Shown: positions 1,614-33,441, numbered from the stretch's first letter. The stretch: 33,824 nt of DNA from Lentisphaerota bacterium (GCA_025360875.1 JANYBI010000767.1:1-33824), one strand, 5' to 3'. Notes: generated by a model from the letters alone, not told the origin. Translations and numbers: made by a program.

Positions 1614-3092
1614 CTACTTCCCGTCCTTTGGGGCTGGAACAGTCTTCTCAGCCTTCAACTCGGTGGCAGTCTTGGCGCCTTGTTCTCTGAGCAAGAGGAT
1701 GACCATATTTGCTTCAAGCAGTTTCCTGTTTTTATCTTCCAATTCAAGCAAAAATCTTTCATGAGACATTCTTGGTTGGCTACGAATATTTTGGATCTCT
1801 TTTAATCTAAGGTTGGCAAAATCCAATGCAGTCATCAAATCACTTGTCTTGTTGTTGATAATATTGACTGAAGCTTTGAATCTGAGCAATATTCTCAGGT
1901 GCTCAATTTTCCCTTTAGATGCGGCCTCAATCAAAGCTGTATTGCCAAAAGAATTGATTTTATTTATGTCAGCTCCTTTTTGGCAGAGATAATCCGTATA
2001 GAGAGGTGAGAGGTTGATGGAATCAGTCAACACCGTACTCCCATATCCCGACATCGAATTGATGTTTACACCGAACTTTAGCAATAAATCCATTATCATA
2101 TATGTGTTGATATCAGGCAAGTTAGTCCTGAGTGCAAGGAAAAGTTCAGAATCTCCCCAATATGCACTATCTCCTTCAACGTTTACTTTAGCTCCATTTT
2201 CCAACAAGAGTTTGACAATTTTGCAGCTGCCTGTCGAAACAGCCAGTTTTAAAGATGTATATCCCCCTTTAGTGGAACAGTTGTCATCCGCATTCTTGCT
2301 AATCAAATATTTGACCATGTTTTCATTATCCAACGCAGAGGCAAACATTAATGGTGACCAGCCGTCAGCATCTTTTTTGTTTATTAAATCATCGACATTT
2401 GATATTTTTTCTGCTGTAACAACATCGTTTAAAATTGCTGCTCGGATAAGAGGCGTTGAATCTTGATGTTCAAAATCCCTAATATCAGCTCCTGCTTCAA
2501 TAAGCATCTTTGTCAATTCGAAAAAATGTTGGTCTTTTAAAATTGAAGTTCCATCTTTTTTCTTAAGATTGACATCAGCGCCATATCTCAAAAGCAGTCG
2601 TATCATTTCTGGACTGGCGGCTTCATATAAAGCCGTTCTGCCAAATTTATCAGCAGCATTGACATTAGCCCCGTTTTCTAATAGCAGTCGAACAATTTCA
2701 TAACAGTGCATCACATAGAATGGAAGTGGGTTTCCTGTTATATGGTCATACAAGACATTTGCATTATTATATTGACAGACAGCTTTAATTAGTACGGGTT
2801 CTTCATCTGCAGGCTTTATATTTGCATCAGCGCCATTTTCTAAAAGAAGCCTTACCAACTCAGGACTCCCCTGTGCCATTGCCAAAGACAGTAATGTAGA
2901 ACCGTCAGGCAATTTCTGGTTGACATCAATTCCATCTCTTATGGCTTCACAGACAATAGCACGTCCATCCTTGCCCTCATTATGGCAGTGCCTCAAAGAA
3001 CAGCAACCCGCCAGGATAAACACTGCGGATAATGCAATCACCGATTTTGATAATTCATGTAAGAAAAGTTTCATCTCGCCCCTCTGGTTCAT
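1614..3092 (-). CDS. Ankyrin-repeat lipoprotein (~10 ANK repeats, C-terminal charged/coiled tail)
   Basis: 492-aa ORF. Repeated ANK signatures: G.TLLSLA...ELVRLLLENGADANI, LLENGANVNAADKFGRTALYEA, LLRYGADVNLKKKDGTS, IEAGADIRD, LLENGAKVNV, CQKGADINKINSFGNTALIEAA, LLRFKASVNI. The N-terminus MKLFLHELSKSVIALSAVFILAGC contains a lipobox (L-A-G-C). An alternative start at 3074 (M7) has GAGGGG 5 nt upstream. Codon usage is strongly AT-rich: sampled 60-nt lines give ~35-37% GC versus ~55-65% in the neighbours. Confidence 0.85.
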   Translation of the reverse strand: MNQRGEMKLFLHELSKSVIALSAVFILAGCCSLRHCHNEGKDGRAIVCEAIRDGIDVNQKLPDGSTLLSLAMAQGSPELVRLLLENGADANIKPADEEPVLIKAVCQYNNANVLYDHITGNPLPFYVMHCYEIVRLLLENGANVNAADKFGRTALYEAASPEMIRLLLRYGADVNLKKKDGTSILKDQHFFELTKMLIEAGADIRDFEHQDSTPLIRAAILNDVVTAEKISNVDDLINKKDADGWSPLMFASALDNENMVKYLISKNADDNCSTKGGYTSLKLAVSTGSCKIVKLLLENGAKVNVEGDSAYWGDSELFLALRTNLPDINTYMIMDLLLKFGVNINSMSGYGSTVLTDSINLSPLYTDYLCQKGADINKINSFGNTALIEAASKGKIEHLRILLRFKASVNIINNKTSDLMTALDFANLRLKEIQNIRSQPRMSHERFLLELEDKNRKLLEANMVILLLREQGAKTATELKAEKTVPAPKDGK

Positions 3093-3253
3093 AGTTGCCT
3101 TACATTTGCTTTCCCAACTTCCTTCCTGTTGACATGTGCGATGTCAAAAACGGTGCTGATAATCCTTCTTTGCTTATCAGCCATATTTTTTCTATCTTTA
3201 CGCATGGAATGCGTTGAATAACATAGCCTATGGTTTCAACCATAGGTAATGGA

Positions 3254-3286
3254 TTAAAAAATATATCCACCCTGAAGGGGTGGGAT
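3254..3286 (-). terminator. Rho-independent terminator candidate downstream of the 3368..6526 gene
   Basis: Minus-strand reading: CCACCC-cttca-GGGTGG (3267..3283, extendable with one bulge to 3265..3286), followed directly by ATATATTTTTT. It lies ~80 nt after the stop at 3368. Confidence 0.55.
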
Positions 3287-3367: not shown

Positions 3368-6300
3368 TCACGGTTTCCATCTGAAGAAATTGTTTTTGCC
3401 GCCCCAGCCGCTGTTCTCGGTGAAGATCAGGTATTCGCCGTTCTTGCATTTGAAGGCGCGAATCCCCATGGCGGCGTCCTCCCAGGCTGACTGTCCGATT
3501 ACTTCAGGTCCCATTGAAAGGATTTCCACAAGCTTGCCGGTATTGAGATCGAAGACGTGTATCTCCCCATGGATATAGGCCATGAAGAGATAATCTCCTG
3601 CGACCTGTATTCCCATGTATCCGCCGTACTGGTAGGGATTGATCTCGTACATGAAATAGTCGGGATCGGTCCAGGGTGAGAACGCCTTGACCTTCCATTT
3701 CGGGATGCGATTGCCCTTGCTCCAATTGTCGTAGCGGCCCATGAAGTATTGCGCAGGAGACGTGTCGCCTTCGCCTTTGCGCGGCACGGCCGGATAGAAG
3801 GCGACCATGATGTCCCTGTCAGCATCGTAGTCCATCCTGCATGACATGCCCCAGGCGTTGGTCTTGTCGCCCTCTTCAGGAAACCGTACATCCTCATATC
3901 CATCGCCCTTTACTCCACTATATAAAGGAACACCCTTGTCGTTCATCCCTTTGAATGTGAAATGGCGCATGAAAGAGCCGTCGGTGGCGGGATTACCGGC
4001 CCAGATGTCGCCTTTGGAGTCGATACACAATGCGGTGACCCAGCCGATGCCGCGTTCCATTTTTACTATCTCCTCAGGCTGCTGTTTGCCGTCGCCGTTG
4101 GCATCGGTCCAGAATGTGTTTCCATTCTCGCGCGTGCCTCCGCAGGGAACCGCGATTTCGCCTTCATACCGATAAATATTGATCTCTCCGACAGTTCCCT
4201 GTCCGCTGGTGAACATTACAAGTTTCCTGTCATCTCCGAGACGCCGGACGATGGACTGCGAGCCGCCGGCGCGGGCAGGTTCCCCGTAGTTGCGGAGATC
4301 CCAGTTGTACCCGACGTACTTCTGTTCCTTGCCGGGTTCCTTCCGGGAAAGATCGAGTTTCAGATGGTTGTACGTGCCATAGATATCGGCGCCGTCGCTG
4401 TCAGGATCGACATCATATGTATTGCAGAACATCAGGCTGTTGAGCATCCAGCCCATCTTTCCGTCCGGTGCGAACATGCGCAGGTCGGATCCCTGGAAAC
4501 CGCCCCCGACGTAGAGGTTGCCTTTTGCGTCGACGCCCACGCCAGCGATACCGGCAAAACGTGCAAAGCCGCCGGACGCCGGATCGTTGACCAGCCCCGG
4601 ATTTTTCCCGCTGTAGATGCCGCCTTTCTCACCGAAAGTTCTGGCAAGAACCGGTTTCGAATCGAGCTTGTCATAGAAACGCACATTCAAGTCCGGACCA
4701 TTTTCCGCGACGAGAAGCTGATCCTTGGCGGCGTCATATCCCAGGGCGCGCGGATTGACCGCATCGGTGATTTCGCGGCCTTTAAACTTGCCGTCGATCC
4801 CATAGCATTTTACCGCCGGCTTATATTTCGCAGTGGTGGCGGCCGGACCAGGATAATCATTTCCACGCTGTATGATCCACAGGTCGCCGCGCTTGTCGAA
4901 AATCATCGGGCCGGGACGTTCAAACGGGAAATTCCTGCTGACCAGTTCGGCGGATTCCCCCTTGAAATCGCCTACCGCGGGACCGCCGCAGTTGATGGCG
5001 AAAAGCCTTTTCCCTTTCTGATCCAGGACTTCGAGACCGCAGATGCCGGGTCCGCCGTAGGATCCGGTGTTGACAATGACATTGCCCTTGTCGTCCGCCT
5101 TGCAGCCGGGGAAATCCTTGACGAGCGGTTTCAGAACTCCGCCGGCGAGTTCAGCCACGTTGACCGTGACGCCGTTGACATCCCTGACCCTGTTCCGGGG
5201 ATCGCCTTTTGCGGGACGTTCGACATATTCTGCGAAATGGCAGCGGACTGTGTATTCGGAACCTGCGGTGAATCCGGGAAGAGTGTAACGGAACCCTTCG
5301 CCGACGCGCTGGGTCTGGTAGACAATTTCCGGTGCGAACTTCGCATCTTTCCCGGGCACTGCGACAGGCGTCGGAGCGGTTGCAACACCGTCATTGGCCG
5401 CCAAAGGCACTTCGAATGTTTTAACGGGTTCCGTGGACACCACGCGGACAATGTTCTCGCGGGAATCGGCCACGAAAAGCTCACGTCCATTCGACGCCAT
5501 GCCGCTGATCACGCACATGTTTGATTTCTTGTCGAGCATACCGACCGAGAGGGTCACGGGCCGCGGCGCGAAATCAGGTTTTGCGGGATCAAGCTCGGTA
5601 ATGCGGTCGACAGTCGCCACGTAGATATGCCTGTCATCGCCTGTGATGCCGCCATCGGCAGTCTGCGGCGTACCGATCGGAAGCGGCCTCAGCACCTTGC
5701 CGTCGCGATATGAAGTGCAGGGAGTGCCCGCCTCATCCCAGTAGGAACTGGTATAGCAGGTGCCGTCAGGCGCCACCCACATTGCCGAAAGACTGTTCGC
5801 CACGTGGCCTTCATCCGGAGGGCAGCCGAAACTGTTGCCGACCCAGCTGGTCTTGTAGCGCATGTTTGGAGCGCCGATGGAGATATTGTCAAAAACCGCC
5901 GTAGCTACCTTGCCCGGATCTCCGCTGTTGACAAAAAATCCGATTTCAAGAGCGCCTTCAGAAGCAAATCCTCCGCCGCTCACATTGCTGATCATCACCC
6001 AGAGGCGGCCATCAGGAGATTTGTAAACTGCGAAGTTCTTTCCCTGCCTGACAAATCGCAACCAGATCGGCGCATCCCGTTTTGTACCTATCCCGCCGCC
6101 GGACTGCCCGGACGTTGCCGGCTCCTTTGCGCTCCAACTCAAACTGTTCTGGCCTTCTTTTGTGTCCTTGACGCAGAAGCTGACCTGCGCAGTTGCGGGT
6201 TTCGCAGATTCGCCAGCCTCCCGGACCATGATGCCGGCACGGGCCTGGGGCATTTCGGAAATTGACGCGATCCGGACCACTATCTCAAAATCCCCGCCCG

Positions 6301-6526
6301 GATGGGAACTGTATGCGAAGTGGCCTTCCACGTCACCTTTGCCTGCGCCCTTGACCGTAAGCTTGCCTTCAGACTGCGAATATCCTCCGGGCAAGACAAG
6401 TCCGCCAAAGTCCTTGCTCTGCCATGACGGCTTGAAGACAGGCGCGGCTCCACAACTCAGCATGATTCCGGCAGCGGCTGCCAGAATGAAAATACTTTTA
6501 ATCCTGTTCATAGCAATCCTTTCCAT
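3368..6526 (-). CDS. Large secreted protein: N-terminal concanavalin-like jelly roll, malectin-like insert, C-terminal multi-blade beta-propeller. Function unknown. Paralog of 9255..12863.
   Basis: 1052-aa ORF. Signal peptide MNRIKSIFILAAAAGIMLSCG, possibly a lipoprotein; the alternative start at 6511 has AAAGGA upstream. The jelly-roll-like head runs roughly over residues 35-215 and ends ...VATAVFDNISIG. Malectin-like stretch: IVYQTQRVGEGFRYTLPGFTAGSEYTVRCHFAEYV...RVRDVNGVTVNVAELAGG. Propeller/NHL-like strands include GVGVDAKGNLYVGG and a DANGDGK Ca-binding-like loop. The C-terminal ~680 aa align by eye with 9255..12863: SWVGNSFG/SWFGNTFS, FCNTYDVDPDSDGADIY/FCTCSDFDPATDGADIY, GIRAFKCKNGEYLIFTE/GVRAFTCKNGEIILLVE. 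Confidence 0.8.
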   Translation of the reverse strand: MERIAMNRIKSIFILAAAAGIMLSCGAAPVFKPSWQSKDFGGLVLPGGYSQSEGKLTVKGAGKGDVEGHFAYSSHPGGDFEIVVRIASISEMPQARAGIMVREAGESAKPATAQVSFCVKDTKEGQNSLSWSAKEPATSGQSGGGIGTKRDAPIWLRFVRQGKNFAVYKSPDGRLWVMISNVSGGGFASEGALEIGFFVNSGDPGKVATAVFDNISIGAPNMRYKTSWVGNSFGCPPDEGHVANSLSAMWVAPDGTCYTSSYWDEAGTPCTSYRDGKVLRPLPIGTPQTADGGITGDDRHIYVATVDRITELDPAKPDFAPRPVTLSVGMLDKKSNMCVISGMASNGRELFVADSRENIVRVVSTEPVKTFEVPLAANDGVATAPTPVAVPGKDAKFAPEIVYQTQRVGEGFRYTLPGFTAGSEYTVRCHFAEYVERPAKGDPRNRVRDVNGVTVNVAELAGGVLKPLVKDFPGCKADDKGNVIVNTGSYGGPGICGLEVLDQKGKRLFAINCGGPAVGDFKGESAELVSRNFPFERPGPMIFDKRGDLWIIQRGNDYPGPAATTAKYKPAVKCYGIDGKFKGREITDAVNPRALGYDAAKDQLLVAENGPDLNVRFYDKLDSKPVLARTFGEKGGIYSGKNPGLVNDPASGGFARFAGIAGVGVDAKGNLYVGGGFQGSDLRMFAPDGKMGWMLNSLMFCNTYDVDPDSDGADIYGTYNHLKLDLSRKEPGKEQKYVGYNWDLRNYGEPARAGGSQSIVRRLGDDRKLVMFTSGQGTVGEINIYRYEGEIAVPCGGTRENGNTFWTDANGDGKQQPEEIVKMERGIGWVTALCIDSKGDIWAGNPATDGSFMRHFTFKGMNDKGVPLYSGVKGDGYEDVRFPEEGDKTNAWGMSCRMDYDADRDIMVAFYPAVPRKGEGDTSPAQYFMGRYDNWSKGNRIPKWKVKAFSPWTDPDYFMYEINPYQYGGYMGIQVAGDYLFMAYIHGEIHVFDLNTGKLVEILSMGPEVIGQSAWEDAAMGIRAFKCKNGEYLIFTENSGWGGKNNFFRWKP

Positions 6527-6532
6527 GTATCA

Positions 6533-8761
6533 TCACCTTGTTGGTTTGAAGTTCAGAAATTCCTGGGCCAGCACCGAAAGCGCGGCGGTCGGATCAGTGG
6601 TGACAGCCGCAGCGTCGAACGGCGCCTGCAGGACCCAGTCCCAGTCGTCGCGCTGGTAGTCGATCTCGTCGAGCCATGCGCGGAAGACGTTGAAGGAATA
6701 TGTGAACACGTAAACTTCGCCCTTGCCGATCTTCCGTTTGTAGAGAAGCGGCGACCACGGGCTGACCTTCTGCTGCTGGATGAAATATTTTTTCAGCTCT
6801 TCCGGATCGCTGCCCTTGTACGGCGATGGCGCGACAGCTTCCGCGAGAATCTGGGCGTCCGACGGCAGTTTCACCCATTTGAAGACCAGTTCCTTTTCAC
6901 GGCGGCCTGGCATGTAACGGCCACGGCGCATGTTCCAGTACGGCAGGAAATCGTCGCGCAACTGCCAGCGCAGGCTGACAGTCCACGGATTCCAATGCTG
7001 GTGATATGTGGATTCGACCTCAAGCGCGCCAGCCAGCTTGTTCCAGGCGGACTGGTCCATCGTTGCGCCGCGCGGATCGTACATCTTGCCATCCTCGCCG
7101 AAACTCAGGAGAACACGTCCACCCTGTTTTGCGTACGCGAGCAATGTCGCCGGCAGTTCGGGGAAGTCGCGCTGGTACTCGTCGGCGGAGACGATAACCA
7201 CCTTGAAAGGTGTCAGTTCCTCGAGGGCGATCGGACCGCGTCCCTGGAACCAGCTGTGCTTGACTTCCGGCTGGACACCGAGCCGGGCGCAGGCCGAAGC
7301 GATGCAGGCGTTGGTCATGTTGGCATCGATCTGTTCGAGGCCAAGCCGGTGTCCGGTAGGCACAAGAAGCAGGACTTCGTCAGACACGCGCGGCGTCGGA
7401 ACTTTTGCCGAAAGATAGGTGCGCATCCGGCGCGCCACGGGACGGTATTTATGCTGCATGTCGATCACGCCCATCTGCTCGCCTTCACGATGGAAATATT
7501 CAGGTTCGGGACGTGACGAGGAATCGTCGTCCGACCAGCACCACCAGCCGATGCCGTCGGCGCCGGCTTCCATGTAGACGCGCTGCAGGCGTTCGAAGAG
7601 GATGCGCTGGTCCTTCTCCTCGCGCGCCCAGCGGAGGAAGGCTGTCATGACCGAGCCGTGGCACGGGATGAGCGCCGTTTCCGGCGCGGCAGCCTTGAGA
7701 TAGCGGCAGCGTTCCCAGGCTTCAGTACAGGTGGAAAGGGAATCTATCTGGTCCTTGCCGGTGGTCGGTTCGACAAATCCCTGGCGCTGCCAGTTCGGGG
7801 CGACGTTCGAGCCATAGGACATGTTGAACCCGTACATCTCGATCCACACCGCATCGACGTTCATCAGACCTGGAATATAATTCTCCTGCGGCCCGCTGCA
7901 CCACTCGCATCCCTCATGGACGCTCATCGTCTTGATTTTAGGCGCGATCTTCCTGATCTCACCGTAGAAACGGTTATGGGTCCGGACCATGGTTTCGCTC
8001 TGGAACGCCAGGAAATCGAAACTGCGGGAATCGGCGCGCGTGAACTGTCCGAGCACTTCAGTGGGCAACGCGACCTCGCCCCACTTCTTCGGTTTTTCAG
8101 GCAGGTACGGGTTTGCCTTCAGGAAAGCCTTGAAATCGTCCTTGTACTTTTTCCGCAGCCATTCCTGCCAGAAGGGTTTGACCGGGAGAAGTTCCGCGGC
8201 TTCCGGTTCACCGGGACGGAATCCTGCGTATGCGGTCCAGAGACGTCCGCCGGACCGTCCCATGATCAGCGGTACTGCCGTATCGTCGGCGAAACGCCGT
8301 GCGAATTCGCCAAACGCCTTGACCTGCGCATCGAACAGGTAATCGCTGAAAGCATGCTGGTTCAGAGTCATCCCTTTCGGCGAAGGGTTTGCCTTGCCAA
8401 GGACATGCCGTACGGCTTCGCTGCTGTCATCACCATCAAGATTGGGAAACGGAATCAGGTAGATATCCTGTGAACGCGCTATCTCCACCATCTTCGCAAC
8501 GTTCTTCCACTGCGCCTCGACCGGCTTGCCATTTTTGAAGAAGGGCTTGAGGTTGATGAAAGGGACAGCCCAGGTCAGCCCGACCTTTTTCATCAGTTCA
8601 AAATCGTTTGCCAGATCCTTCTCATTGGCTTTCCAATATTCCTCGGCAAACCAGTCGCCGCCGCAGGTCCCGGGCGTACGTCCGAAATAAACCGGACCCG
8701 TTGGCAAAATCTTTTTCCCGCCGCGAAAGAATGATCCGTTCCTGATTTCCAGTGGTAGCAT
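6533..8761 (-). CDS. Cytoplasmic glycoside-hydrolase-like protein: N-terminal (beta/alpha)8-like domain plus a GH42-trimerisation/GATase1-like domain. Paralog A of 23715..25958. Family unassigned.
   Basis: 742-aa ORF with GGAGGG 6 nt upstream of the ATG and no signal peptide. The N-terminus YFGRTPGTCGGDWFAEEYWKANEKDLANDFELMKKVGL resembles the start of clan GH-A barrels (GH42/GH35 style). The middle/C-terminal stretch FKVVIVSADEYQRDFPELPATLLAYAKQGGRVLLSF resembles the GATase1-like beta-galactosidase trimerisation domain. It shares blocks with 23715..25958: YYGRFPGACGPDWW, IRKVAP, ADGW.YWNW.DD, RIGKGWVYV..W.NNVFR. I could not find a canonical NEP acid/base motif. Confidence 0.6.
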   Translation of the reverse strand: MLPLEIRNGSFFRGGKKILPTGPVYFGRTPGTCGGDWFAEEYWKANEKDLANDFELMKKVGLTWAVPFINLKPFFKNGKPVEAQWKNVAKMVEIARSQDIYLIPFPNLDGDDSSEAVRHVLGKANPSPKGMTLNQHAFSDYLFDAQVKAFGEFARRFADDTAVPLIMGRSGGRLWTAYAGFRPGEPEAAELLPVKPFWQEWLRKKYKDDFKAFLKANPYLPEKPKKWGEVALPTEVLGQFTRADSRSFDFLAFQSETMVRTHNRFYGEIRKIAPKIKTMSVHEGCEWCSGPQENYIPGLMNVDAVWIEMYGFNMSYGSNVAPNWQRQGFVEPTTGKDQIDSLSTCTEAWERCRYLKAAAPETALIPCHGSVMTAFLRWAREEKDQRILFERLQRVYMEAGADGIGWWCWSDDDSSSRPEPEYFHREGEQMGVIDMQHKYRPVARRMRTYLSAKVPTPRVSDEVLLLVPTGHRLGLEQIDANMTNACIASACARLGVQPEVKHSWFQGRGPIALEELTPFKVVIVSADEYQRDFPELPATLLAYAKQGGRVLLSFGEDGKMYDPRGATMDQSAWNKLAGALEVESTYHQHWNPWTVSLRWQLRDDFLPYWNMRRGRYMPGRREKELVFKWVKLPSDAQILAEAVAPSPYKGSDPEELKKYFIQQQKVSPWSPLLYKRKIGKGEVYVFTYSFNVFRAWLDEIDYQRDDWDWVLQAPFDAAAVTTDPTAALSVLAQEFLNFKPTR

Positions 8762-8801
8762 ATTATCCCTCCATATTTATTTTTAAACTAATTTCAGTAG
8801 A

Positions 8802-8875
8802 AGTCAGAATTCAGGAGTCAGGAGTCAGAATAAATCCAGATTCGAGTTTGAATTTCATTCTGTCTTCTGACTCCT
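8802..8875. repeat. Direct repeats (AGTCAGAAT x2, AGGAGTC x2) plus an 11-bp perfect inverted repeat AGGAGTCAGAA (8820..8830) / TTCTGACTCCT (8865..8875)
   Basis: Read directly from the sequence. The stem encloses a 34-nt loop. It lies ~40-110 nt upstream of the 6533..8761 start on the minus strand. Confidence 0.7.
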
Positions 8876-8881
8876 GTCTTC

Positions 8882-8903
8882 CTGCAAAACTCAAGTTTTG
8901 CAG
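8882..8903. repeat. Perfect 9-bp hairpin CTGCAAAAC-tcaa-GTTTTGCAG
   Basis: Read directly from the sequence. A second hairpin, CCTCCG-ttatagc-CGGAGG, lies at 8911..8929. Confidence 0.7.
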
Positions 8904-9051
8904 TCATATACCTCCGTTATAGCCGGAGGCTTGAATTCTGTTATCCGCTTTGAGCGGCAAACCACATTCACAGTCCATGATAAATTCCATACTCCTGCGG
9001 AGGACACTTTCCAAAATCCAAACAAGTTCTAAATTTCAAATCCTAAATACG

Positions 9052-9135
9052 CAAACTGAAGTTTGTACTCCAACGACTATTTTCTAATTTTACCGTTACA
9101 TGTCAAGCATATGTTGGAGTCCAAGCTTTAGCTTG
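9052..9135. repeat. Imperfect 23-bp inverted repeat of the GTTGGAGT..CTTTAG family, with 38-nt spacer
   Basis: The left arm caaactgaagtttgtactccaac (9052..9074) pairs with the right arm gttggagtccaagctttagcttg (9113..9135) at 19 of 23 positions. The arms are ~80% identical to the arms of the 22117..22186 inverted repeat. Confidence 0.65.
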
Positions 9136-9254
9136 TCTTCCAAAACAGTCAAAACAGCTAGCTCACTATTTCCGCAACTACCGTTTTTCGTATTTTCTTC
9201 CTTTCATCGGTTGGATATTCCGTGTTGGATATTGGATATTCATATTTTACTAAA

Positions 9255-12200
9255 TTATTTTTCATTCTGCGGTTTAAACGTAATCGGCGGCACCGACTTG
9301 GCGCCGGGCTTTACGCGGTATACCATCTGCTTCTGCGCCCAGCTGTCCTCGACCAGCAGGATTATTTCCCCGTTCTTGCAGGTGAAGGCGCGCACTCCGC
9401 CGTCAATGTCAATCCATCCGATCCCTCCGAACAGATTTGCGTCCGGTTCGATCACGCCGTGCAACTTGCCAGTTTTCGTGTCATATGCGAAAACCGCATT
9501 ATTCTGCATTTCGCCGACGAACGCGAGATTGGAACGGTCCGCGATCGAGATGGCCTTGATGTCCTGGGCTTCTTCGGGAAACGGCATCCGGCAGCGGAGT
9601 TTGCGCGCTGGCTTCATCCAGTTGTCATAGCAGATAAGCTCGTGACCGCTGTTGCCCCATCCATATTCTTTGCCGGTCAGCGGACAGTTCCAGGTATAGC
9701 CTGAAAGATACATCGTGTCGGTCGCAGGAAAATACCAGGCCCTCAGCACACGGCTGAACTCCACCGGTTTCGGATACCAAACTTCACTTGCAAAATCATA
9801 TTTCGGAATGCCGGCCTCAGTGAATCCTTTCAGCGGAAGATAGCGGACGCCCCAGCGGTCCTGAGGCTCCCAGATCCCGCCATTGTCATCCACGTAGCAG
9901 CTGAAAGATTCGCGGCTGGGTTCGGCTTTCTCGTCCGGCAGACTTATCTCATCCTTTCCGATCTGGCCATTGCCGTCAGCGTCGATCCACAGGAACCGGT
10001 TTTTCTTTTCGGGCGCTTCCTTCGGACGGAACCCGTTGCGGAATCCCGGCGCATAATATCCGCATGGAATGAAAATTTCGCTGTCCTTTTCCTGACGGTG
10101 GATTGCCATCGACTCGCCCCAGGAATAGCGGAAAAGCTGTCCGTTCAGGCGGCGCAGGATCTGGCTCTGCCCGTATCCGTCCGCCAGCTCTGGAAACCTC
10201 GACGGATCGGACGTGATACCGGCAAGCTTCCAGTCTTTTCCCGGAACCTGGCCCGGCACATATTTATAATGGTGCAAGGAACTGTAGATGTCGGCGCCGT
10301 CGGTGGCGGGATCAAAGTCCGAGCACGTGCAGAATACAGTCGATTCGAGCTGCCAGAGGAATTTCCCTTCCGGCGAATATGCGCGCATGATCTGGCCGTT
10401 GCATTCGACATAGACATTTCCGGAAGCGTCCACGGCAAGCCCCATCATGTTCCAGAGACGGTTCTCGCCCATCTCTCCGCGGCGCGGTCCCGCGAACACG
10501 CCGCCGCGTTCGCCGATCGTTCCTATTTCCTTCGGCTGCGCGCCGCTGACATCGTAACGTATGATCTGGTTCCGTCCGCCATTGGCGGCGACAAGCAGGC
10601 GTCCCTGCGGATCAAAAGCCAGCGCGCCAACCTTCAGATCAGGAATCGCCTTGCCGGCAGCTTTGCCGTCCATCTTGAACTGCACGACTCCGCTTTCGTT
10701 GCCAAGCCAGATCGTGCTGTCCTTGCCAAGGACAATCGGACCTGCCTGATCGATTGCGATGGAACGTTTGTATGAAGCGTCGGATTTGCCGTAGACACGT
10801 ATTTCCTTGAGCCCCTTGGCGGTCACATAGATCTCATCGTTCCCGACTGCAAGACCGCAGACCTCGTTCCATATCGCCGGTGTTTCGAAACTGATCCGTT
10901 TCGCCTCGCCAAGCTGGGTCCAGGGAACTTCCGCGCCGATGAAAGACTTGTCAATCGCATGACGCCGGATGCCCGCTGTCGGTTTCCCCATACCCGAGTT
11001 GCCGACATAGAAATATTTGTCGTCAAAAACGATCTGGCTGGAACCGCCGCTGGTCACAGGACCAACCGGTTTTCCATCCTTGTAGAACCCGATCTCCTTG
11101 TGCGGCTCATCCCAGATGCTCGTGGCGACGACGGTCCCGTCCGGAAGAACGTTTATGCCTGAAATTCCCGACTGCACCCATTCCGTCTTGCCGCTGAACG
11201 TATTGCCGAACCAGCTCAGGGCCGTGGGAACGCGCGCCATCGTCAGCGTCCAGTGCGAACGCGCGTCCTTCTCCAGTTCCAGCTGTTCCTTGCTCTTGAT
11301 TGTGATGCCATATTTTTCCGCGAGATACGCATCGGTCTGCTTCCGTTCGTCGGCGCTCAGGACATGATCGTAGATCAGCACTTCCGCAATATCGCCGTTG
11401 AACTGCGTCTCTCCGGTATTGTTCGTGCCGATTGCGGATTTCGCAAAAAGGACCGGGACAGACTGGTCCGGATCTTCCATGCGCATCTGCTGATGGCCGT
11501 TGGCATAGGTTTCAATATATTGGCCGTTATCGCCAATCTTTCCGACAACCACGGAAATCATCTGCGGTCCGGGCTGATATTGCAGCATCGGGAACGGATC
11601 TCCGGCAAGTTTGCTTCCGCAAAGCTGGAGAACACCGAGTGTCCGCAGGCAGCTGTTCTGACCCGGCGCACTGTCGAACACGCCTGCGCCAGACAGTTTC
11701 GCTCCGGCAACCACCAGCGTCATTTCCGGATATTTGCCTTCGACCGGCAGATTGAAATAATGTACGATTTTAGGTTTCGCATTGCCGTCGCCCTCGAACC
11801 GGAGCACCGGACGCCTGTTAATTCCCCTTGGAATGAACTTTGGACTGTTTGCGATATCCGCAGTCGTAAGATCCTTCTTTTCACCTGCGGAATTCTGCCA
11901 GGTCTCGACAGGCGTCCTTTCCTTCAGGCCCTTGATAGTGTCGGCACTCGACCACAGCAGCAGCCCGTCCGTCGCAGGTTTCGTTTTTACAGGCGGAGGC
12001 TGAGACAGCTGTTCGGGCGGTTTCGGCGGCGTGTAGGCAAGCGGAAATTTCGGATCGTCAGGCTTCGCTTTGGCAAGTCCATATTTCGACATCAGATAAC
12101 GTTCGACATTCTGGCGTCCGTCATCCGAAAGCGTGCCTTTGTAGATGAGCGCTTCGGAAATCTCGCCGTTGAAGACATTTTCACCGCCGTTGTTGTTCCC

Positions 12201-12863
12201 AATCCGGCTGTTTGCGAATATCACACTGTAGATCGGACTTGGATCGGCAGCAGTCACCTGCAGCTGTCCGTTGACGTATGTGCTGACAGTGATCGATCCG
12301 GCATCGTTCATCACCGCGGTTATGGTTCCGACGGCAAAATCATCCTTTCCGGCAATTGAAGGGAACGGTGCATCCATGGCGATCTTGGTTCCGCAAAGCT
12401 GGAGGAACCCCATCGTGCGCAGACAGCCTACGCCACCCGGCGCCGTGTCGAGCAATCCTGCATGACTGATGTTTTTCCCGGCCACGAAAAAGGTGAAGCT
12501 TCTCCATTCGCCGTTAAGCGGCAGGCTGAACGACTCGTTGATCTTCGGCTTGGCGTTCAAGTCTCCTGCGAAAACCACGCCGGGATGCCCTGCCGTCCCA
12601 TCCATTTTCAAAGTTGGCCGCCCGTCCCCGTCAGCTCTCAGATCAACCTTGTTCCCGCTGGCATCGGGCCACAGGTTTATCCTGGCTCCATCCTTGAACA
12701 AAGATTTGAGATCATCGGACTTCACCCAGAACATCAGCTTCGGCTGCTGCATCTTCTGCTGATCAGGAGAGCGTTCATCAGCTGCGGATCCCAGTACTGC
12801 TGCACCGAAGAGAATGCCGCCAAAGAGCAATATTTTCGAGCTGATTCTTTTGAACATGACCAC
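9255..12863 (-). CDS. Large secreted protein: two tandem LamG (concanavalin-like lectin) domains plus a C-terminal multi-blade beta-propeller. Function unknown. Paralog of 3368..6526.
   Basis: 1202-aa ORF with GAGGAGG upstream of the ATG. Signal peptide MVMFKRISSKILLFGGILFGAAVLGSAA. Two LamG_3-type ends: FNGEISEALIYKGTLSDDGRQNVERYLMSKYGL and FNGDIAEVLIYDHVLSADERKQTDAYLAEKYGI. Each is preceded by NAKPKI...LP..G...AG...AG..D.APG..CLRT.G.LQLCG.K. Propeller strands include GLAVDASGNVYVE and a DADGNGQIGKDEI loop. The C-terminus is homologous to that of 3368..6526. Confidence 0.85.
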   Translation of the reverse strand: MVMFKRISSKILLFGGILFGAAVLGSAADERSPDQQKMQQPKLMFWVKSDDLKSLFKDGARINLWPDASGNKVDLRADGDGRPTLKMDGTAGHPGVVFAGDLNAKPKINESFSLPLNGEWRSFTFFVAGKNISHAGLLDTAPGGVGCLRTMGFLQLCGTKIAMDAPFPSIAGKDDFAVGTITAVMNDAGSITVSTYVNGQLQVTAADPSPIYSVIFANSRIGNNNGGENVFNGEISEALIYKGTLSDDGRQNVERYLMSKYGLAKAKPDDPKFPLAYTPPKPPEQLSQPPPVKTKPATDGLLLWSSADTIKGLKERTPVETWQNSAGEKKDLTTADIANSPKFIPRGINRRPVLRFEGDGNAKPKIVHYFNLPVEGKYPEMTLVVAGAKLSGAGVFDSAPGQNSCLRTLGVLQLCGSKLAGDPFPMLQYQPGPQMISVVVGKIGDNGQYIETYANGHQQMRMEDPDQSVPVLFAKSAIGTNNTGETQFNGDIAEVLIYDHVLSADERKQTDAYLAEKYGITIKSKEQLELEKDARSHWTLTMARVPTALSWFGNTFSGKTEWVQSGISGINVLPDGTVVATSIWDEPHKEIGFYKDGKPVGPVTSGGSSQIVFDDKYFYVGNSGMGKPTAGIRRHAIDKSFIGAEVPWTQLGEAKRISFETPAIWNEVCGLAVGNDEIYVTAKGLKEIRVYGKSDASYKRSIAIDQAGPIVLGKDSTIWLGNESGVVQFKMDGKAAGKAIPDLKVGALAFDPQGRLLVAANGGRNQIIRYDVSGAQPKEIGTIGERGGVFAGPRRGEMGENRLWNMMGLAVDASGNVYVECNGQIMRAYSPEGKFLWQLESTVFCTCSDFDPATDGADIYSSLHHYKYVPGQVPGKDWKLAGITSDPSRFPELADGYGQSQILRRLNGQLFRYSWGESMAIHRQEKDSEIFIPCGYYAPGFRNGFRPKEAPEKKNRFLWIDADGNGQIGKDEISLPDEKAEPSRESFSCYVDDNGGIWEPQDRWGVRYLPLKGFTEAGIPKYDFASEVWYPKPVEFSRVLRAWYFPATDTMYLSGYTWNCPLTGKEYGWGNSGHELICYDNWMKPARKLRCRMPFPEEAQDIKAISIADRSNLAFVGEMQNNAVFAYDTKTGKLHGVIEPDANLFGGIGWIDIDGGVRAFTCKNGEIILLVEDSWAQKQMVYRVKPGAKSVPPITFKPQNEK

Positions 12864-13033
12864 CCCTCCTCAATTATTTATCTTCACTTCTGTTCCATCT
12901 TTCTCATTAATCTTACAGGACTTCGTTTACTTCTTCCATTTGTCATGTGCAGCCTGGCTCCCCTTGTCACTCCTTAGCCTGCTAAAAATCCTCATACTGA
13001 TAATCCCCAGACTACTTTTGCCTCTCATGCAGA

Positions 13034-13576
13034 TTAATAATACGGGAATCTTTTCAGGGAATCGGGAGTCAAGTCATTATGCAACATCTGATTTTTCAAA
13101 TCTTCTTCCTTTTGCCTTTCCGTTTTCAACTGACCCGTCTTGTAGAGCTTCTCGTAGACGTCTTTAAGAATCATCATCCCTTTTTCCGAATAAGGATCTT
13201 TGGTCAGTGCCTTCTCGCATAATTCCCTTGCTCTCAAAAGTTCCTTTGGCTTTCCTGATGAACACAGTTCCTCGGCATTTGCCAATAATTCCTCTTGTTC
13301 CTTCATGTTGACGATATATGCCTTGAAATCATAATGGACTGTCTTTTCGGCAAGATAATCATATCCCCAGAACGACTTGGCTCTAACTGGAGTCAGTCTC
13401 TCTTCCGTCCAATATACATATCCATTTTCATTCCGTTCTGACAGGATTCTTCCTTGTGCTTTGCTTTCCAGATAACTCGAATATGAAGCATCACTTGGCA
13501 AGCTGGCAGGGGTTTGAGTAGAACAGCCTGGGAGAAGCAGCAAAAGCAGGGCATATAATGTTGGTTTGATTGTCAT
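13034..13576 (-). CDS. Small lipoprotein of unknown function; helical/TPR-like C-terminal half
   Basis: 180-aa ORF. N-terminus MTIKPTLYALLLLLLPGCSTQ contains a lipobox-like L-P-G-C. AT-rich. Only a 3-nt gap to the upstream gene. Confidence 0.6.
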   Translation of the reverse strand: MTIKPTLYALLLLLLPGCSTQTPASLPSDASYSSYLESKAQGRILSERNENGYVYWTEERLTPVRAKSFWGYDYLAEKTVHYDFKAYIVNMKEQEELLANAEELCSSGKPKELLRARELCEKALTKDPYSEKGMMILKDVYEKLYKTGQLKTERQKEEDLKNQMLHNDLTPDSLKRFPYY

Positions 13577-13579
13577 AGG

Positions 13580-14062
13580 TTAAAATTCCCCCTTGCCCAG
13601 CTTTTCCTTAGCCCTTGCAAATCTATCGACGATATCGAGTTCATTGAAATGCTCGTTTATTGCTTTGTTAATAATATCATTTGCATATTTCTGCCCATCA
13701 CTGCCACCCTCATAATAAGCCGTGCTTTGCTTCTGGCTGACGCTGGGGGAGAAGGCTCCATCTCTTGCGATGCAAATGTATATCCCGCTGTATCCTTTGT
13801 GGACAATCTGCTCTTTGATTTCATCGGAGAAATCCTCAACGGAAACACCATTGAATACATCCATATATCCAAATTTATATCCCGACAGATAAAAATTTTT
13901 AGATGTTGAATCATATGATTTAATCTTTCCTGGCATATTAAAGATGAAAATATCATTTTGAACAGTAGTGGCAGCTCTGCTTGAGAATCTGAAATACATC
14001 AATGTTATCAGTATGGTAACAAATGCTACAGCAAGAAAGAGGATGATTAAGAACTTTTTCAT
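13580..14062 (-). CDS. Small N-terminally membrane-anchored protein of unknown function
   Basis: 160-aa ORF. MKKFLIILFLAVAFVTILITLMYF is a signal-anchor helix. AT-rich (hand count on a sampled line ~35% GC). Confidence 0.6.
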   Translation of the reverse strand: MKKFLIILFLAVAFVTILITLMYFRFSSRAATTVQNDIFIFNMPGKIKSYDSTSKNFYLSGYKFGYMDVFNGVSVEDFSDEIKEQIVHKGYSGIYICIARDGAFSPSVSQKQSTAYYEGGSDGQKYANDIINKAINEHFNELDIVDRFARAKEKLGKGEF

Positions 14063-14113
14063 TTTATTTACCTAGTTTATCCATACTCTACTTTTACCTG
14101 TCTCACCTGTCCA

Positions 14114-14605
14114 TCATTTCATATTGTCAACGGGGGCTGTATTGTCCTTAACTGAGACGCCATTTTCATCTGCAAAAGCCTTTGTAATATCTTCTTTTAT
14201 TGTAGGCCAGTCTTTTTCACAGTTAGGATTATAAATGTAAATGCTATATTTCTTGGTAACTGCTAATGGTTTAATACTTGGGTCTTTAAATTCAGGTGGT
14301 AAAAAACATAAAAGATAGTCACATTTCCACATAGCATATGACCCCGCCCATTCGCCTTTTCCAGCAATAAGACCAACGGTGAAATAATGATATCCCGGAA
14401 ATAAAGTTCTTGCATGTTCTGGCGTATATAAAGACCTGCCTATGCTCCATCCTTCTGGCAGAATTGAACGGACTCTATCGACGATACCTTCGCTAAACAA
14501 TTTTTCCTTTTCATAATCGTGTGTCTTGGTTGTCGGGGAATTGCAAGAAATAGAATAGAACGGCAATAAAAACAGGACTAATGCTAATCGTATTATTCGA
14601 CTCAT
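14114..14605 (-). CDS. Small exported protein / possible lipoprotein of unknown function
   Basis: I moved the start from 14797 to the internal ATG at 14605 (MSRIIRLALVLFLLPFYSISCNS...). The longer ORF overlaps the AGE gene by 172 nt in another frame and its extra 64 aa look non-protein-like. The 14605 start gives a signal peptide and has AAGAAGGG upstream. Very AT-rich (a sampled line is ~27% GC). Confidence 0.6.
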   Translation of the reverse strand: MSRIIRLALVLFLLPFYSISCNSPTTKTHDYEKEKLFSEGIVDRVRSILPEGWSIGRSLYTPEHARTLFPGYHYFTVGLIAGKGEWAGSYAMWKCDYLLCFLPPEFKDPSIKPLAVTKKYSIYIYNPNCEKDWPTIKEDITKAFADENGVSVKDNTAPVDNMK

Positions 14606-14625
14606 AGTAAGCCCTTCTTTTATTC

Positions 14626-15810
14626 TTATTTCATCTCGCTGCCACGCATAAGCCGTGTTCCAAACAGCAGGCAGCGGGGCAGATGGAAGAAACATTTCCA
14701 GCGGCCGCCTTTCAAAGTATGCGTCGGTTCGCCATGGCGGTTCAGGTAGGCGTACCACTCGCCGTGTTCCGGATCCGGGAAACGCCGCCAGGTCCATTCG
14801 TCCAGACGCTGGAACCAGTCCAGGAAATTGGAATCACGGGACGCCTCATAGGCGAAAAGCGAAGCAAGTATCGCCTCGTTGTGGACCCACCACAGCTTCA
14901 TGTCCCACTGCAGTTCCGCGTGCGGCAGACCTTTTGCATCCATGAAATAGAAGAGTCCGCCGTGCACCGGATCCCATCCGAACTCCAGCAGGGATTTGAC
15001 CACATAACATGCTTTTGCCGCCAGCCTCCTGTCGCCTGTCCTGCGGGCGTATTGCAGGAGAAACCACATGGCTTCAAGCCCGTGGCCGGGATTGATATGG
15101 CGGCCATCGCAGCTTTCAAGATCCACGCTGCCGTCAAGATTCACATTCTCGAACAGCAGGTCCAGTTCCGGATTCCAGAACATGTCCAGCACCGTGTCCG
15201 CAGCCCGCCGGATATCCGCCTCGTACTGCTCCGTTCCCAGACACTCGTTGAGCACATACCCCAGGTTGGCCATCATCATATAATGACCGAGCGTTTTCCG
15301 TTTCGGTTTGCCCGGCATGCTCTTCTCCCACTTCCCTTTCGGATTGTCGACACGTGAAAGGTAATGGGACATGGACAGTTCGGCCTCCTTGCGGTATTTC
15401 GTCTCGCCGGTGGCCTTGAAAAGCGCGGCAGCGCCCATGGCGGCGAAACAGTCGGAATAGATATTGTAGGCCGCCACCATCGGCTCGCCTTTCCGGTTGA
15501 GCGAGAAATAATAGTTGCCATGCTGGTCTTTTCCGTGCTGGGTCAGAAACTCATATCCGTGGCGTGACAGTTCCAGCCACCGGTCCTGACGGTATTCCGA
15601 GGCATACAGGGTCGCGAACATATAGACCATGCGCCACTGCATCCACATGGATTTCTCGTTGTCGAACACCTTGCCGTCGCGGGTGAGGAAATTGAAGTAG
15701 CCGCCGCATTCGCGGTCGATGCTGTGTTTCTCCCAGAACGGAACTACCGATTCCAGCAGTTCACGTTCGTAGCGGGCGGCAGCTTTTTCCAATTGCAGTT
15801 TTATTTCCAT
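14626..15810 (-). CDS. AGE-family epimerase/isomerase (N-acylglucosamine 2-epimerase / cellobiose- or mannose-2-epimerase-like, (alpha/alpha)6 barrel)
   Basis: 394-aa ORF. LLESVVPFWEKHSIDRECGGYFNFLTRDGKVFDNEKSMWMQWRMVYMFATLY matches the characteristic AGE N-terminal block. Further down: GHGLEAMWFLL, GGLFYFMD, WWVHNEA. Confidence 0.85.
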   Translation of the reverse strand: MEIKLQLEKAAARYERELLESVVPFWEKHSIDRECGGYFNFLTRDGKVFDNEKSMWMQWRMVYMFATLYASEYRQDRWLELSRHGYEFLTQHGKDQHGNYYFSLNRKGEPMVAAYNIYSDCFAAMGAAALFKATGETKYRKEAELSMSHYLSRVDNPKGKWEKSMPGKPKRKTLGHYMMMANLGYVLNECLGTEQYEADIRRAADTVLDMFWNPELDLLFENVNLDGSVDLESCDGRHINPGHGLEAMWFLLQYARRTGDRRLAAKACYVVKSLLEFGWDPVHGGLFYFMDAKGLPHAELQWDMKLWWVHNEAILASLFAYEASRDSNFLDWFQRLDEWTWRRFPDPEHGEWYAYLNRHGEPTHTLKGGRWKCFFHLPRCLLFGTRLMRGSEMK

Positions 15811-22887: not shown

Positions 22888-23703
22888 TTATTTTTGAGCC
22901 AGGCTATCCTTGAGCAGATCCTTCATGTGGCAGTTGATTTCCCACAGGTTGGACAGAGGCTGCCGGGTGTATGGCAATGTGGGCATATATTCAGGCGGTC
23001 CGAACTCAGGACAGATCGTCAGGACTTTGCGCCCCTCGTCCCGCTGATGCTCCACGATCTTCCGCCACCAGCGCATATGCGCTTCAAGCGCCTGCTTCCA
23101 TTCCGGCGCCCTGGGATCATTCACCTGCGGCCCTTCCTCATAGCCGACACGGGCGTGTATGTGGCAGCTATGCAAGATCGCCCGTTCGACGGACTCAGCC
23201 TGATCCTGCAGCAGCGATTCATGCACGCAGCACCAGTGGGAAAAATCGGCGGTGAGCCTGATCTCCGGCATCGCCTCGATCAGGGCCATCGTCGCCACAG
23301 TGGAAAAGGTCGCCCGTCCCCGGTGGATTTCGTGCATGACCTGGAATCCGCATTTTTCCTCGAGTTCACGGGCCGCATCTATGAGGAGCATGTTCTCGGC
23401 TGTCGTATAGTAGTCCTTGCCGGTCTGGGAATTGACGAAGAGCGGGTTGAGTTCGACGCCCCTGCGGTACTGCTCTTCAAAGCTCCGGGCATGCTCCCCG
23501 GGCGAACTGCCGAAGGTCCATTGCTGGACGACCAGATCCAGGCCAAGGTCGTCCAGGATGGAGCGCAGTTCCGTGCGCCGCCTCTTGTCCTCCGGAGCAC
23601 CCATTTCCACTCCGTCGAAACCGCCCTCCTTGATCATCCTGAGATTGGCTTCGAGGGTCGGCTGCTCCATCCCCCACATCCCGCGGATATATTTTATTTT
23701 CAT
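22888..23703 (-). CDS. Xylose-isomerase-like TIM-barrel protein (sugar phosphate isomerase/epimerase superfamily)
   Basis: I moved the start to the ATG at 23703 (MKIKYIRGMWGME...). It has a perfect GAAGGAG 7 nt upstream and does not overlap the upstream gene, whereas the ORF-track start at 23742 overlaps it by 28 nt. Motifs: GFDGVEMG, HEIHRGR, ADFSHWCCVHE, HIHARVG, ICPEFGPPEY. These are metal-ligand-type His/Asp/Glu residues typical of this fold. Confidence 0.75.
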   Translation of the reverse strand: MKIKYIRGMWGMEQPTLEANLRMIKEGGFDGVEMGAPEDKRRRTELRSILDDLGLDLVVQQWTFGSSPGEHARSFEEQYRRGVELNPLFVNSQTGKDYYTTAENMLLIDAARELEEKCGFQVMHEIHRGRATFSTVATMALIEAMPEIRLTADFSHWCCVHESLLQDQAESVERAILHSCHIHARVGYEEGPQVNDPRAPEWKQALEAHMRWWRKIVEHQRDEGRKVLTICPEFGPPEYMPTLPYTRQPLSNLWEINCHMKDLLKDSLAQK

Positions 23704-23714
23704 CGCCGGCTCCT

Positions 23715-30113: not shown

Positions 30114-30127
30114 TTTCTTCTTCCTTT

Positions 30128-32472: not shown

Positions 32473-33441
32473 TCAGTCATCCGTCGCGCTTCTGCTGGAA
32501 ATATACCTGACATGGCCGTCAACGTAGAGGCGGTGTACGGCCTTCTTTTCCAGGGCCGGCACCCACCATTGCTCGCCTGCCTGCGGAGCACTTACGAGAT
32601 TGTAATTGCCATGCGGGTCGTGCACGGTACTCTGTGGCCAGGCGATGATGTGGAACATGCGCGGACATGAAAGCAGCACCTGTTTGGAGCCGTCGCTGCC
32701 GAGCAGAGGATCCATCCAGTCCCATAGGTTGTCATACCGCACATGCACACTCCGCGGCCGAAGCGTAGCGAAATGGCTTGGGGCAACATAATTGCTGTCG
32801 CTGTATCCCCAGCTCCAGCCCCAAATATAAGCACGGAAGGAATCGGTACCTGGGCCGGCATACTGGTAGGCGGAACGATATTCGCCACCGACCACGCTGT
32901 CCTTGCCCGTAGGGGAATACCAGCTGCCGTTTGATTCCAGGAGGGGGCTGGTCTCATGCAGCACCTCCTTAGTACAGTATCCGGCGTCAATCATTTTAGT
33001 GTACCAGGAGTAACCGCTGAAACCGTCCGGGGCCTGACCATAATCCGTTGCCAGACCGCTACCTCCGCCGCGCCCTATGTCCCAGGCAGGCTTGGCAACG
33101 TCGAGTCCCCATGGGTTCCAGTCGGGATTGCCCGGAAAGTCGCCGGCGTCGACGGCGTAGCAAAGGACAGCAACTCCACCCTGGCGAATATTGTTCATGC
33201 AGCGTATGCAATTGGCCTTTTCCTTTGCCTGTCTAAGCACGGGCAGAAGCAGGGCTGCGAGGATAGAGATTATCGCAATGACCACAAGCAATTCGATCAA
33301 AGTAAAGAGCTTTGGTCGAATTGGCCTACGTCCCCTAACGGGTAACTTCGGCTGGCACGCCACCAGAAGCTCGATCAAGGTAAAAATTTTTCCTGTGGGA
33401 AAATTTTTATGTGAACGGCAGCTTTCCTTTTTGCAATCCAT
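32473..33441 (-). CDS. Prepilin-type N-terminal cleavage/methylation-domain protein (DUF1559 / H-X9-DG-like pseudopilin class) with a duplicated FTLIELLV motif
   Basis: 322-aa ORF with GGGGGA ~8 nt upstream. [33 protein letters not shown] is the canonical type IV pilin-like hydrophobic N-terminus. The C-terminal [11 protein letters not shown] resembles the conserved ..DGHV tail of the DUF1559/H-X9-DG class, although the His spacing is not canonical. A second, truncated FTLIELLVA lies 26 residues upstream. Confidence 0.85.

Follow-up and report, generated by a model that had tools for sequence, protein, structure and literature searches.

The window analyzed here is a whole stretch of 33,824 nucleotides from a Lentisphaerota bacterium (GCA_025360875.1, JANYBI010000767.1:1-33824), in which the minus strand carries almost all of the coding sequence. 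Two of its genes, encoding large proteins referred to as ProtA (3368..6526(-); 1052 amino acids) and ProtB (9255..12863(-); 1202 amino acids), were the focus of this study. Open reading frames (ORFs) and Pfam matches, together with an AlphaFold2 model for ProtA and orthologues for ProtB, indicated that both consist of a signal peptide, a lectin-like head, and a C-terminal tandem β-propeller core resembling BceP, a protein encoded in the cepacian exopolysaccharide (EPS) cluster of Burkholderia.

The signal peptide of ProtA (amino acids 1-26; 6449..6526(-)) was assigned from the N-terminal sequence, signal peptides of the window proteins being judged by eye; residues 6-24 formed a helix of low pLDDT (predicted local distance difference test) in the model, and a possible lipobox (MLSC) was not kept in orthologues. 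The head of ProtA (~35-220; 5867..6424(-)) was a concanavalin A (ConA)-like jelly roll similar to DUF1349 (PF07081; E = 1.9e-6, below the Pfam cut-off) and was all-β in the model. The core (~640-680 amino acids) began with an N-terminal part (224-365; 5432..5857(-)), was split inside the first propeller by a malectin-like module (~366-512; 4991..5431(-); PF11721, E = 7e-4), and continued with the rest of propeller 1 and propeller 2 (513-1052; 3371..4990(-)), as delimited by BLASTP to ProtB and BceP. This insert (~150 amino acids) appeared as a gap in the alignment of ProtB, BceP, and core-only members, and ProtA orthologues also gave Malectin matches. In ProtB, two ConA-like Laminin_G_3 domains (~43-262 and 300-520; 11304..12737(-); PF13385, E = 1.6e-16, in two alignment blocks) preceded a BceP-like tandem β-propeller core of ~646 amino acids (~545-1190; 9294..11231(-)), defined by AlphaFold2, Foldseek, and tblastn. 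Profile-sequence comparison detected no similarity between the heads of ProtA and ProtB (hhalign probability of 0.2%), in agreement with the unrelated N-termini, a jelly roll and two LamG domains, reported in a preliminary description of this DNA. The shared core of ~680 amino acids proposed there was also found, at the sizes given above, but the malectin-like insert had gone unmentioned.

The C-terminal cores were homologous, as the preliminary description had claimed: pairwise BLASTP aligned ProtA 495-1052 with ProtB 668-1186 (28% identity, E = 7e-44) and, colinear with this longer C-terminal segment, ProtA 227-303 with ProtB 550-620 (35% identity, E = 9e-8), and the gap between the two segments was explained by the malectin-like insertion in ProtA. 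All five motif blocks quoted earlier were located in these alignments (ProtA and ProtB, respectively): SWVGNSF and SWFGNTF; PDGT..WDE..RDGK and the same block ending in KDGK; FCNTYDVDPDSDGADIY and FCTCSDFDPATDGADIY; DANGDG and DADGNG; GIRAFKCKNGE and GVRAFTCKNGE.

When the core of ProtB was compared by tblastn with plasmid and megareplicon records, it matched BceP of B. cenocepacia with 30.2% identity over 97% of the query (E = 1e-70), and homologues in B. multivorans and B. arboris matched similarly (~30% identity over 97% of the core). BLASTP with the core of ProtA gave 30% identity to BceP (E = 2e-50), plus an N-terminal block (E = 2e-9), and the signature motifs were all kept. The B. cenocepacia homologue (746 amino acids) follows genes for an RMD-like reductase, a GDP-mannose 4,6-dehydratase, and an Acyl_transf_3 protein, and is itself followed by a Polysacc_synt (Wzx) flippase, a GT4-GT1 glycosyltransferase, an acyltransferase, and an NTP-transferase (UGPase). 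Since these neighbors match the published order of the cepacian bce-II cluster, bceM-N-O-P-Q-R-S-T, in which bceP is the first gene of the bcePQR operon (PMC7378592), the homologue was identified as bceP. Judged by sequence similarity, the core of ProtA and ProtB belongs to the BceP family, which is named but biochemically uncharacterized. The new family suggested in the preliminary description is therefore not unprecedented, and its lack of characterization still stands. BceP has been described as an all-β, non-cytoplasmic protein of unknown function that is "putatively polysaccharide-degrading" (PMC3417362), proposed as a polysaccharide-processing protein (PMC3417362, PMC4432689), and called just a β-propeller protein in a 2024 paper (PMC11341992).

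ProtA and ProtB shared with BceP the motifs SWxGN, WDE, an EF-hand-like WxDxNGxG...E loop, VDxxGxIW, and the C-terminal G(I/V)xAF..NGE, as well as the predicted non-cytoplasmic location and all-β structure. On the other hand, BceP is core-only (~746 amino acids), and its gene shares an operon for EPS biosynthesis with those of a flippase and a glycosyltransferase, whereas ProtA and ProtB add lectin-like heads (and, in ProtA, the malectin-like insert) in a locus of catabolic enzymes; Pfam scans detected no flippase, glycosyltransferase, or polymerase domain in the scanned ORFs of the window, the neighbors being of catabolic type. Location in an EPS operon reflects the role of the BceP orthologue and is thus not a criterion of membership in the protein family. 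ProtA and ProtB are a head-decorated variant of the BceP family from a catabolic locus.

The two proteins had been regarded as paralogues, and their homology bears this out, but not as products of a recent local duplication. Each was approximately as distant from BceP (30% identity) as from the other (28%), and each had its own orthologues (45-70% identity) in other genomes, and, on these sequence comparisons, they are ancient paralogues within the BceP family. A word-seeded search with ProtA retrieved 73 clusters of orthologues (45-69% identity; 1040-1100 amino acids), essentially all unnamed or "hypothetical" apart from a handful that had been named automatically (for example, "sugar lactone lactonase YvrE"). 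For ProtB, two orthologues (P0001 and L007) were 59% identical over the full length. One metagenomic contig (L002; 3685..13459) carried orthologues of both ProtA (46% identity) and ProtB (59%). Among ProtA orthologues, identity was 64-70% in the core, with 65-70% over residues 513-1052, and averaged 41% in the head, the least conserved domain.

AlphaFold2 models built from family alignments were confident for the ProtB core (pLDDT of 93.3; predicted template modeling score, pTM, of 0.92) and for full-length ProtA (91.3 and 0.87, respectively). Both were all-β; the ProtB core was rigid and almost devoid of helix, and its ~47 strands suggest approximately 12 blades. Foldseek against the PDB retrieved tandem double propellers with both models, including Aip1 (1nr0), Utp21 (4nsx), and CFAP52 (TM-scores of 0.2-0.45), together with glycan-sensing domains of the Bacteroides hybrid two-component systems (HTCS) BT4663 and BT4673; no carbohydrate-active enzyme (CAZyme) was present among the top 50 matches of either model. 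When the family profile was searched against all PDB sequences, only blades of the NHL, WD40, or YncE type were matched, those of the NHL type at profile positions ~130-360 (designed Pizza proteins, PknD, TRIM-NHL, and virginiamycin B lyase). Single-sequence PDB searches yielded designed propeller blades and nothing further, and a viral six-bladed NHL protein (262 amino acids; Foldseek against BFVD) superposed on one propeller with a TM-score of 0.69. These models and matches indicate that the core combines an NHL-like first propeller with a second one specific to the family, the two being packed together rigidly. A propeller - TIM-barrel - propeller module had been described previously: the tandem propellers were recovered, but the all-β models contained no TIM barrel inside ProtA or ProtB, and the supposed barrel corresponds to the separate gene that lies between them.

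Blades of the first propeller resembled six-bladed NHL propellers (the PknD sensor, TRIM-NHL, and virginiamycin B lyase), but this similarity extended over just one-third or so of the core; specific to the family were the second propeller, the SWxGN strand at the N-terminal end, and the putative Ca2+ loop. The possibility that generic NHL repeats alone account for the homology was ruled out, since the alignments were colinear over both propellers and family-specific motifs lay outside the NHL-like region. Pfam and NCBIfam scans of both proteins returned the head domains and marginal Reg_prop alone, the latter as one weak match per protein (21.3 and 14 bits) with no stretch passing by itself.

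Across 159 members, including ProtA, ProtB, and BceP, 25 polar or aromatic positions (Asp, Glu, Arg, Lys, Tyr, Trp, and Asn), spread over both propellers, were at least 85% conserved in spite of an overall identity of 25-30%. In ProtB, these positions included Trp551, Asn554, Glu586, Asp812, Asp851, Arg923, Asp961, Glu972, Asp992, Trp998, Arg1041, Tyr1044, Asp1049, Asp1152, Glu1172, and Lys1178. All 25 were present in ProtB and BceP; ProtA lacked two, Arg634 of ProtB aligning with Leu350 (beside the insert) and Tyr1182 corresponding to Phe1048. A motif scan located EF-hand-like loops in ProtA (DANGDGKQQPEE; 808-819; 4070..4105(-)), as a putative Ca2+ site, and, supported also by conservation, in ProtB (DADGNGQIGKDE; 961-972; 9948..9983(-)). 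The latter loop matched the canonical pattern D-x-[DN]-x-[DN]-G-x-I-x-x-x-E, and Asp808 and Glu819 of ProtA were conserved in 99% and 98% of the 159 members, respectively. ProtA and ProtB therefore probably bind Ca2+.

When 1.84 billion representatives were searched exhaustively with the family profile, at least 150 (at the 50% clustering level) matched the whole core with E < 1e-168, and 2,526 matched at E ≤ 1e-30, some of which may be unrelated NHL proteins; a word-seeded search with the ProtB core gave 35 relatives without names. Members occurred in Planctomycetota, Lentisphaerales (Lentisphaerota), Verrucomicrobiota, Sphingobacteriales (Bacteroidota), Fibrobacteria (Fibrobacterota), Polyangiaceae (Myxococcota), Streptomyces (Actinobacteria), Calothrix (Cyanobacteria), and Burkholderiales (Paraburkholderia, Burkholderia, Caballeronia, and Cupriavidus). 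The most common form was the bare core with a leader (~700-750 amino acids). In 44 long members, the 25 commonest families of appended domains were ranked. They included carbohydrate-binding or lectin-type domains (Malectin, Laminin_G_3, PA14, DUF1349, Ricin-B, F5/8-type C, CBM6, CBM9, and CBM35; the families of carbohydrate-binding modules (CBMs) represented were 6, 9, 13, 32, 35, and 57), Ig-like or spacer domains (Big_7, fn3, Big_2, and PKD), and the secretion signal Por_Secre_tail, and a recognized catalytic domain was not found among the 25. A member from Sphingobacteriales ended with a sorting domain of the type IX secretion system (T9SS). The module swapping proposed from ProtA and ProtB alone is thus real, and far broader than was noted. 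Collectively, these results firmly support the view that ProtA and ProtB are secreted, carbohydrate-associated tandem propellers of the BceP family with swapped lectin heads.

What the core does is a separate question. We consider it an even chance that ProtA and ProtB are Sec-exported carbohydrate-active proteins in which the heads target a glycan and the core cleaves it, the catalysis being inferred, and the core is a good candidate for a new CAZyme family. More tentatively, and for the family as a whole, the BceP-like propeller may be a catalytic module, and the family a new and large one of the CAZy type, made up of Ca2+-dependent endo-glycanases (lyases or hydrolases) for complex, probably acidic heteropolysaccharides; these enzymes would trim the own EPS of the cell (cepacian and the cyanobacterial polymers) and, with swapped heads, attack foreign glycans outside the cells of the Planctomycetes-Verrucomicrobia-Chlamydiae (PVC) group, Bacteroidota, and actinobacteria. 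A catalytic role is favored by several features: an invariant module has collected diverse CBMs, Ig-like spacers, and secretion tails with no catalytic partner among the commonest families; approximately 25 residues, including the EF-hand-type loop, are invariant in spite of the low overall identity; and the core is better conserved than the heads. Furthermore, EPS clusters commonly carry a gene for a polymer-trimming glycanase, the role guessed for BceP.

In the proposed mechanism, the ConA-like heads and the malectin-like insert of ProtA would bind and position an extracellular heteropolysaccharide or glycoconjugate, and the propeller core would cleave it as a hydrolase or a lyase. The fragments would be imported and finished by enzymes of the locus without signal peptides (two GH42-like paralogues, a GH38-like and a GH5-like protein, a GDSL esterase, an AGE-type epimerase, and oxidoreductases). 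In EPS producers (Burkholderia with BceP, and cyanobacteria), the bare core may trim the polymer of the cell itself.

Several observations weigh against this catalytic reading. No member of the BceP family has a measured activity; neither a catalytic motif nor a known catalytic family was detected by Pfam, NCBIfam, or the PDB profile search; and the nearest fold matches were non-enzymatic scaffolds and the glycan-sensing domains of HTCS. Most ProtA-type neighborhoods were heterogeneous, many with unrelated housekeeping genes, and Pfam enrichment over 43 neighbors of eight ProtA-type loci revealed no conserved operon; this fits the weak operon organization of planctomycete genomes. A core-only member distinct from BceP in Paraburkholderia caballeronis (L031; 10001..12196) follows genes for the utilization of sulfonates and organosulfur compounds (luciferase-like monooxygenases, NMT1 binding proteins, CDO, and rhodanese), for which no carbohydrate explanation fits. 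Lastly, the 2024 paper takes the bcePQR products as transport-related structural proteins (PMC11341992).

The main rival is a non-catalytic glycan-binding protein or scaffold, in which the tandem propeller itself would bind polysaccharide; it would capture glycans at the surface of PVC bacteria and guide nascent EPS in the periplasm or outer membrane of Burkholderia, cleavage being left to other enzymes. We regard this alternative as rather unlikely. In its favor, the closest folds were those of scaffolds and of the double propellers with which BT4663 and BT4673 sense oligosaccharides, the weak Pfam matches are to Reg_prop, the repeat found in these sensors, and no catalytic signature was detected; in addition, bceP is co-transcribed with genes for a flippase and a glycosyltransferase, and a transport-related role has been ascribed to its product (PMC7378592, PMC11341992). 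The TM-scores of the HTCS sensors against the ProtA and ProtB models were just 0.18-0.29, and, unlike these sensors, ProtA and ProtB are free secreted proteins that lack Y_Y_Y, transmembrane, kinase, and receiver segments. Against a scaffold, the fusion of many bona fide CBMs to a module without a catalytic partner in the top 25 is typical of catalytic modules, and neither the persistence of the invariant polar and aromatic residues nor the stronger conservation of the core than of the lectin heads is in favor of a scaffold. The preliminary description had posed this same choice, between a new lyase or hydrolase and a binding scaffold; the domain-fusion statistics tilt the balance toward an enzyme.

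A Ca2+-dependent lactonase or esterase of the SGL/NHL propeller type, acting on small sugar-derived molecules such as the lactones produced by GFO/IDH/MocA oxidoreductases, appears improbable. It would be consistent with the putative Ca2+ loop, with weak SGL and NHL matches in Pfam and automatic names in some members ("sugar lactone lactonase YvrE" and "SMP-30/gluconolactonase"), and with GFO/IDH/MocA genes near family members in the window and at three other loci (L001, L013, and L026). However, SGL was matched in just two of the 44 other members and (PF08450) in neither ProtA nor ProtB at E < 0.1, the SGL/NHL similarity was confined to generic blades of the first propeller, and export and fusion to CBMs, PA14, and T9SS tails would ill suit an enzyme for small molecules; moreover, GFO/IDH/MocA genes are very common in PVC genomes.

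A divergent endoglucanase or xyloglucanase of the GH74 type is the least probable alternative, because, in spite of the similar secreted tandem-propeller architecture and of a homology model published in 2011, for which a GH74 xyloglucanase (Clostridium thermocellum Xgh74A; 2cn2) served as the template of BceP (PMC3417362), the BNR/Asp-box motif (S.D.G..W) was absent from ProtA and ProtB by motif scan, no GH74 chain was found among PDB family-profile matches down to E ~1e-3, and no GH74 entry was in the Foldseek top 50 of either model. GH74 enzymes have two seven-bladed propellers around a substrate cleft with two catalytic Asp residues. Other propeller enzymes fared no better: none of the polysaccharide lyase (PL) families PL11, PL22, PL24, PL25, and PL42 occurred in the PDB family-profile matches or the Foldseek top 50. 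The GH150 λ-carrageenase, an old β-propeller prediction, has no structure (PMC12549532), and its artificial intelligence model was not classifiable as a propeller (PMC8602953); the plasmid tblastn returned no Pseudoalteromonas record, the presence of the P. carrageenovora (CglA) plasmid in that collection being unverified. The earlier view that no signature of a known propeller CAZyme is present therefore holds, and no characterized CAZy family was tied to the core by Pfam, NCBIfam, PDB-sequence, or Foldseek comparison. A literature search on double-propeller CAZymes and on the accession numbers of members found no relevant paper.

If the core is catalytic, it would represent a new and widespread family of polysaccharide-degrading enzymes, of which at least 150 diverged representatives matched over the full length. 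It would then also explain what BceP contributes when cystic-fibrosis pathogens produce cepacian, a question that dates back to the first description of the bce-II cluster by Ferreira et al. 2010 (as cited in PMC7378592), and the link to BceP points to cepacian as a concrete first candidate substrate. Because recalcitrant glycans are degraded to a large extent by PVC bacteria, in which the function of many genes is not known, a family assignment would improve annotation relevant to the carbon cycle.

ProtA and ProtB flank mid742 (6533..8761(-); 742 amino acids), which had been described as a cytoplasmic GH42-like gene. The protein has no signal peptide, is probably cytoplasmic, and gave no Pfam or NCBIfam match. 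When a profile of mid742 and three homologues was searched against the PDB, the top four matches were all GH42 β-galactosidases, colinear and weak (E = 4e-4 to 0.45; best, 9ta3 with 4e-4 and 1kwg with 0.014). Since GH42 alone was matched, and weakly, the earlier designation is plausible but distant. mid742 ends 6 nucleotides before the start of ProtA, and the two genes probably form one transcription unit because of this short gap. A consensus scan placed a promoter-like site (TTGACA-16-GAAAAT; 9079..9106(-)) in the 493-nucleotide spacer upstream of mid742-ProtA, the number of such sites in the region not exceeding that in shuffled sequences, and, past the stop codon of ProtA, two hairpins that resemble terminators and have T runs (3227..3283(-)).

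A second GH42-like paralogue, mid747 (23715..25958(-); 747 amino acids), was 25% identical to mid742 (BLASTP E = 9e-55) and likewise gave no Pfam or NCBIfam match. Its orthologues lie directly upstream of ProtA orthologues at L029 (86% identity) and in a Lentisphaerales metagenome-assembled genome (L017; 60%), suggesting that mid747-type and ProtA-type genes are a conserved functional pair. In a further case, a GH42/DUF4832 gene comes after the ProtA orthologue. A 741-amino acid protein adjoining the Streptomyces member was considered as a mid742 homologue and rejected, as the two are not homologous.

Among the glycan-related proteins of the window, only ProtA and ProtB carried signal peptides; these were absent from both GH42-like paralogues, the GH38-like and GH5-like proteins, the AGE-type epimerase, the GDSL esterase, a xylose-isomerase-like TIM protein, and a fusion of GFO/IDH/MocA oxidoreductase and aldo-keto reductase. 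Both this export pattern and the carbohydrate contexts that recur around family members speak for the proposed carbohydrate-active role. On the L002 contig (and at L003), a BNR_2 sialidase and a SASA sialate O-acetylesterase lie between the ProtA and ProtB orthologues, followed by a 1338-amino acid β-helix/CBM9 protein, and the combination of a sialidase with a SASA esterase was encountered repeatedly in the vicinity of family members. The arrangement on L002, taken with the presence of an AGE-type epimerase in the window, hints at sialic-acid-containing substrates. Elsewhere, cyanobacterial members adjoin two GT4 glycosyltransferases, and the Streptomyces member adjoins LacI regulators and a GH2 gene.

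The remaining observations concern other genes in the window. The xylose-isomerase-like TIM protein (22888..23742) adjoins the GFO/IDH/MocA-aldo-keto reductase fusion, a single ORF of 667 amino acids (26050..28053(-)). The next protein, u813 (28068..30509(-); 813 amino acids), gave no Pfam or PDB match, and PDB searches with u813 and with the GH5-like neighbor yielded no informative match. The ORF of u813 overlaps that of a regulator (30128..31192(-)), and its true start is probably near amino acid 132 because of this overlap. Both u813 and the GntR/Peripla_BP_3 regulator beside it were kept at L029 (70% and 61% identity, respectively), and u813 was also found near a ProtA orthologue at L023.

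Two stretches of the window stood out in composition. The first, of low GC content (~0.43 vs ~0.57), contains a 492-amino acid ankyrin-repeat protein with a lipoprotein-like leader (1614..3092(-)) right after ProtA, and an ankyrin protein also flanks the ProtA orthologue at L030 (7975..8820). The second low-GC stretch (~12900..14800) contains three small ORFs (180, 160, and 227 amino acids) without a family match; two of the three have signal or lipoprotein N-termini, and the 227-amino acid ORF overlaps the start of the AGE-type epimerase. Near the end of the window, two copies of FTLIELLV, the prepilin N-methylation motif, lie in the first ~60 residues of the protein encoded at 32473..33441(-), reflecting either an incorrectly placed start codon or duplication of the leader.

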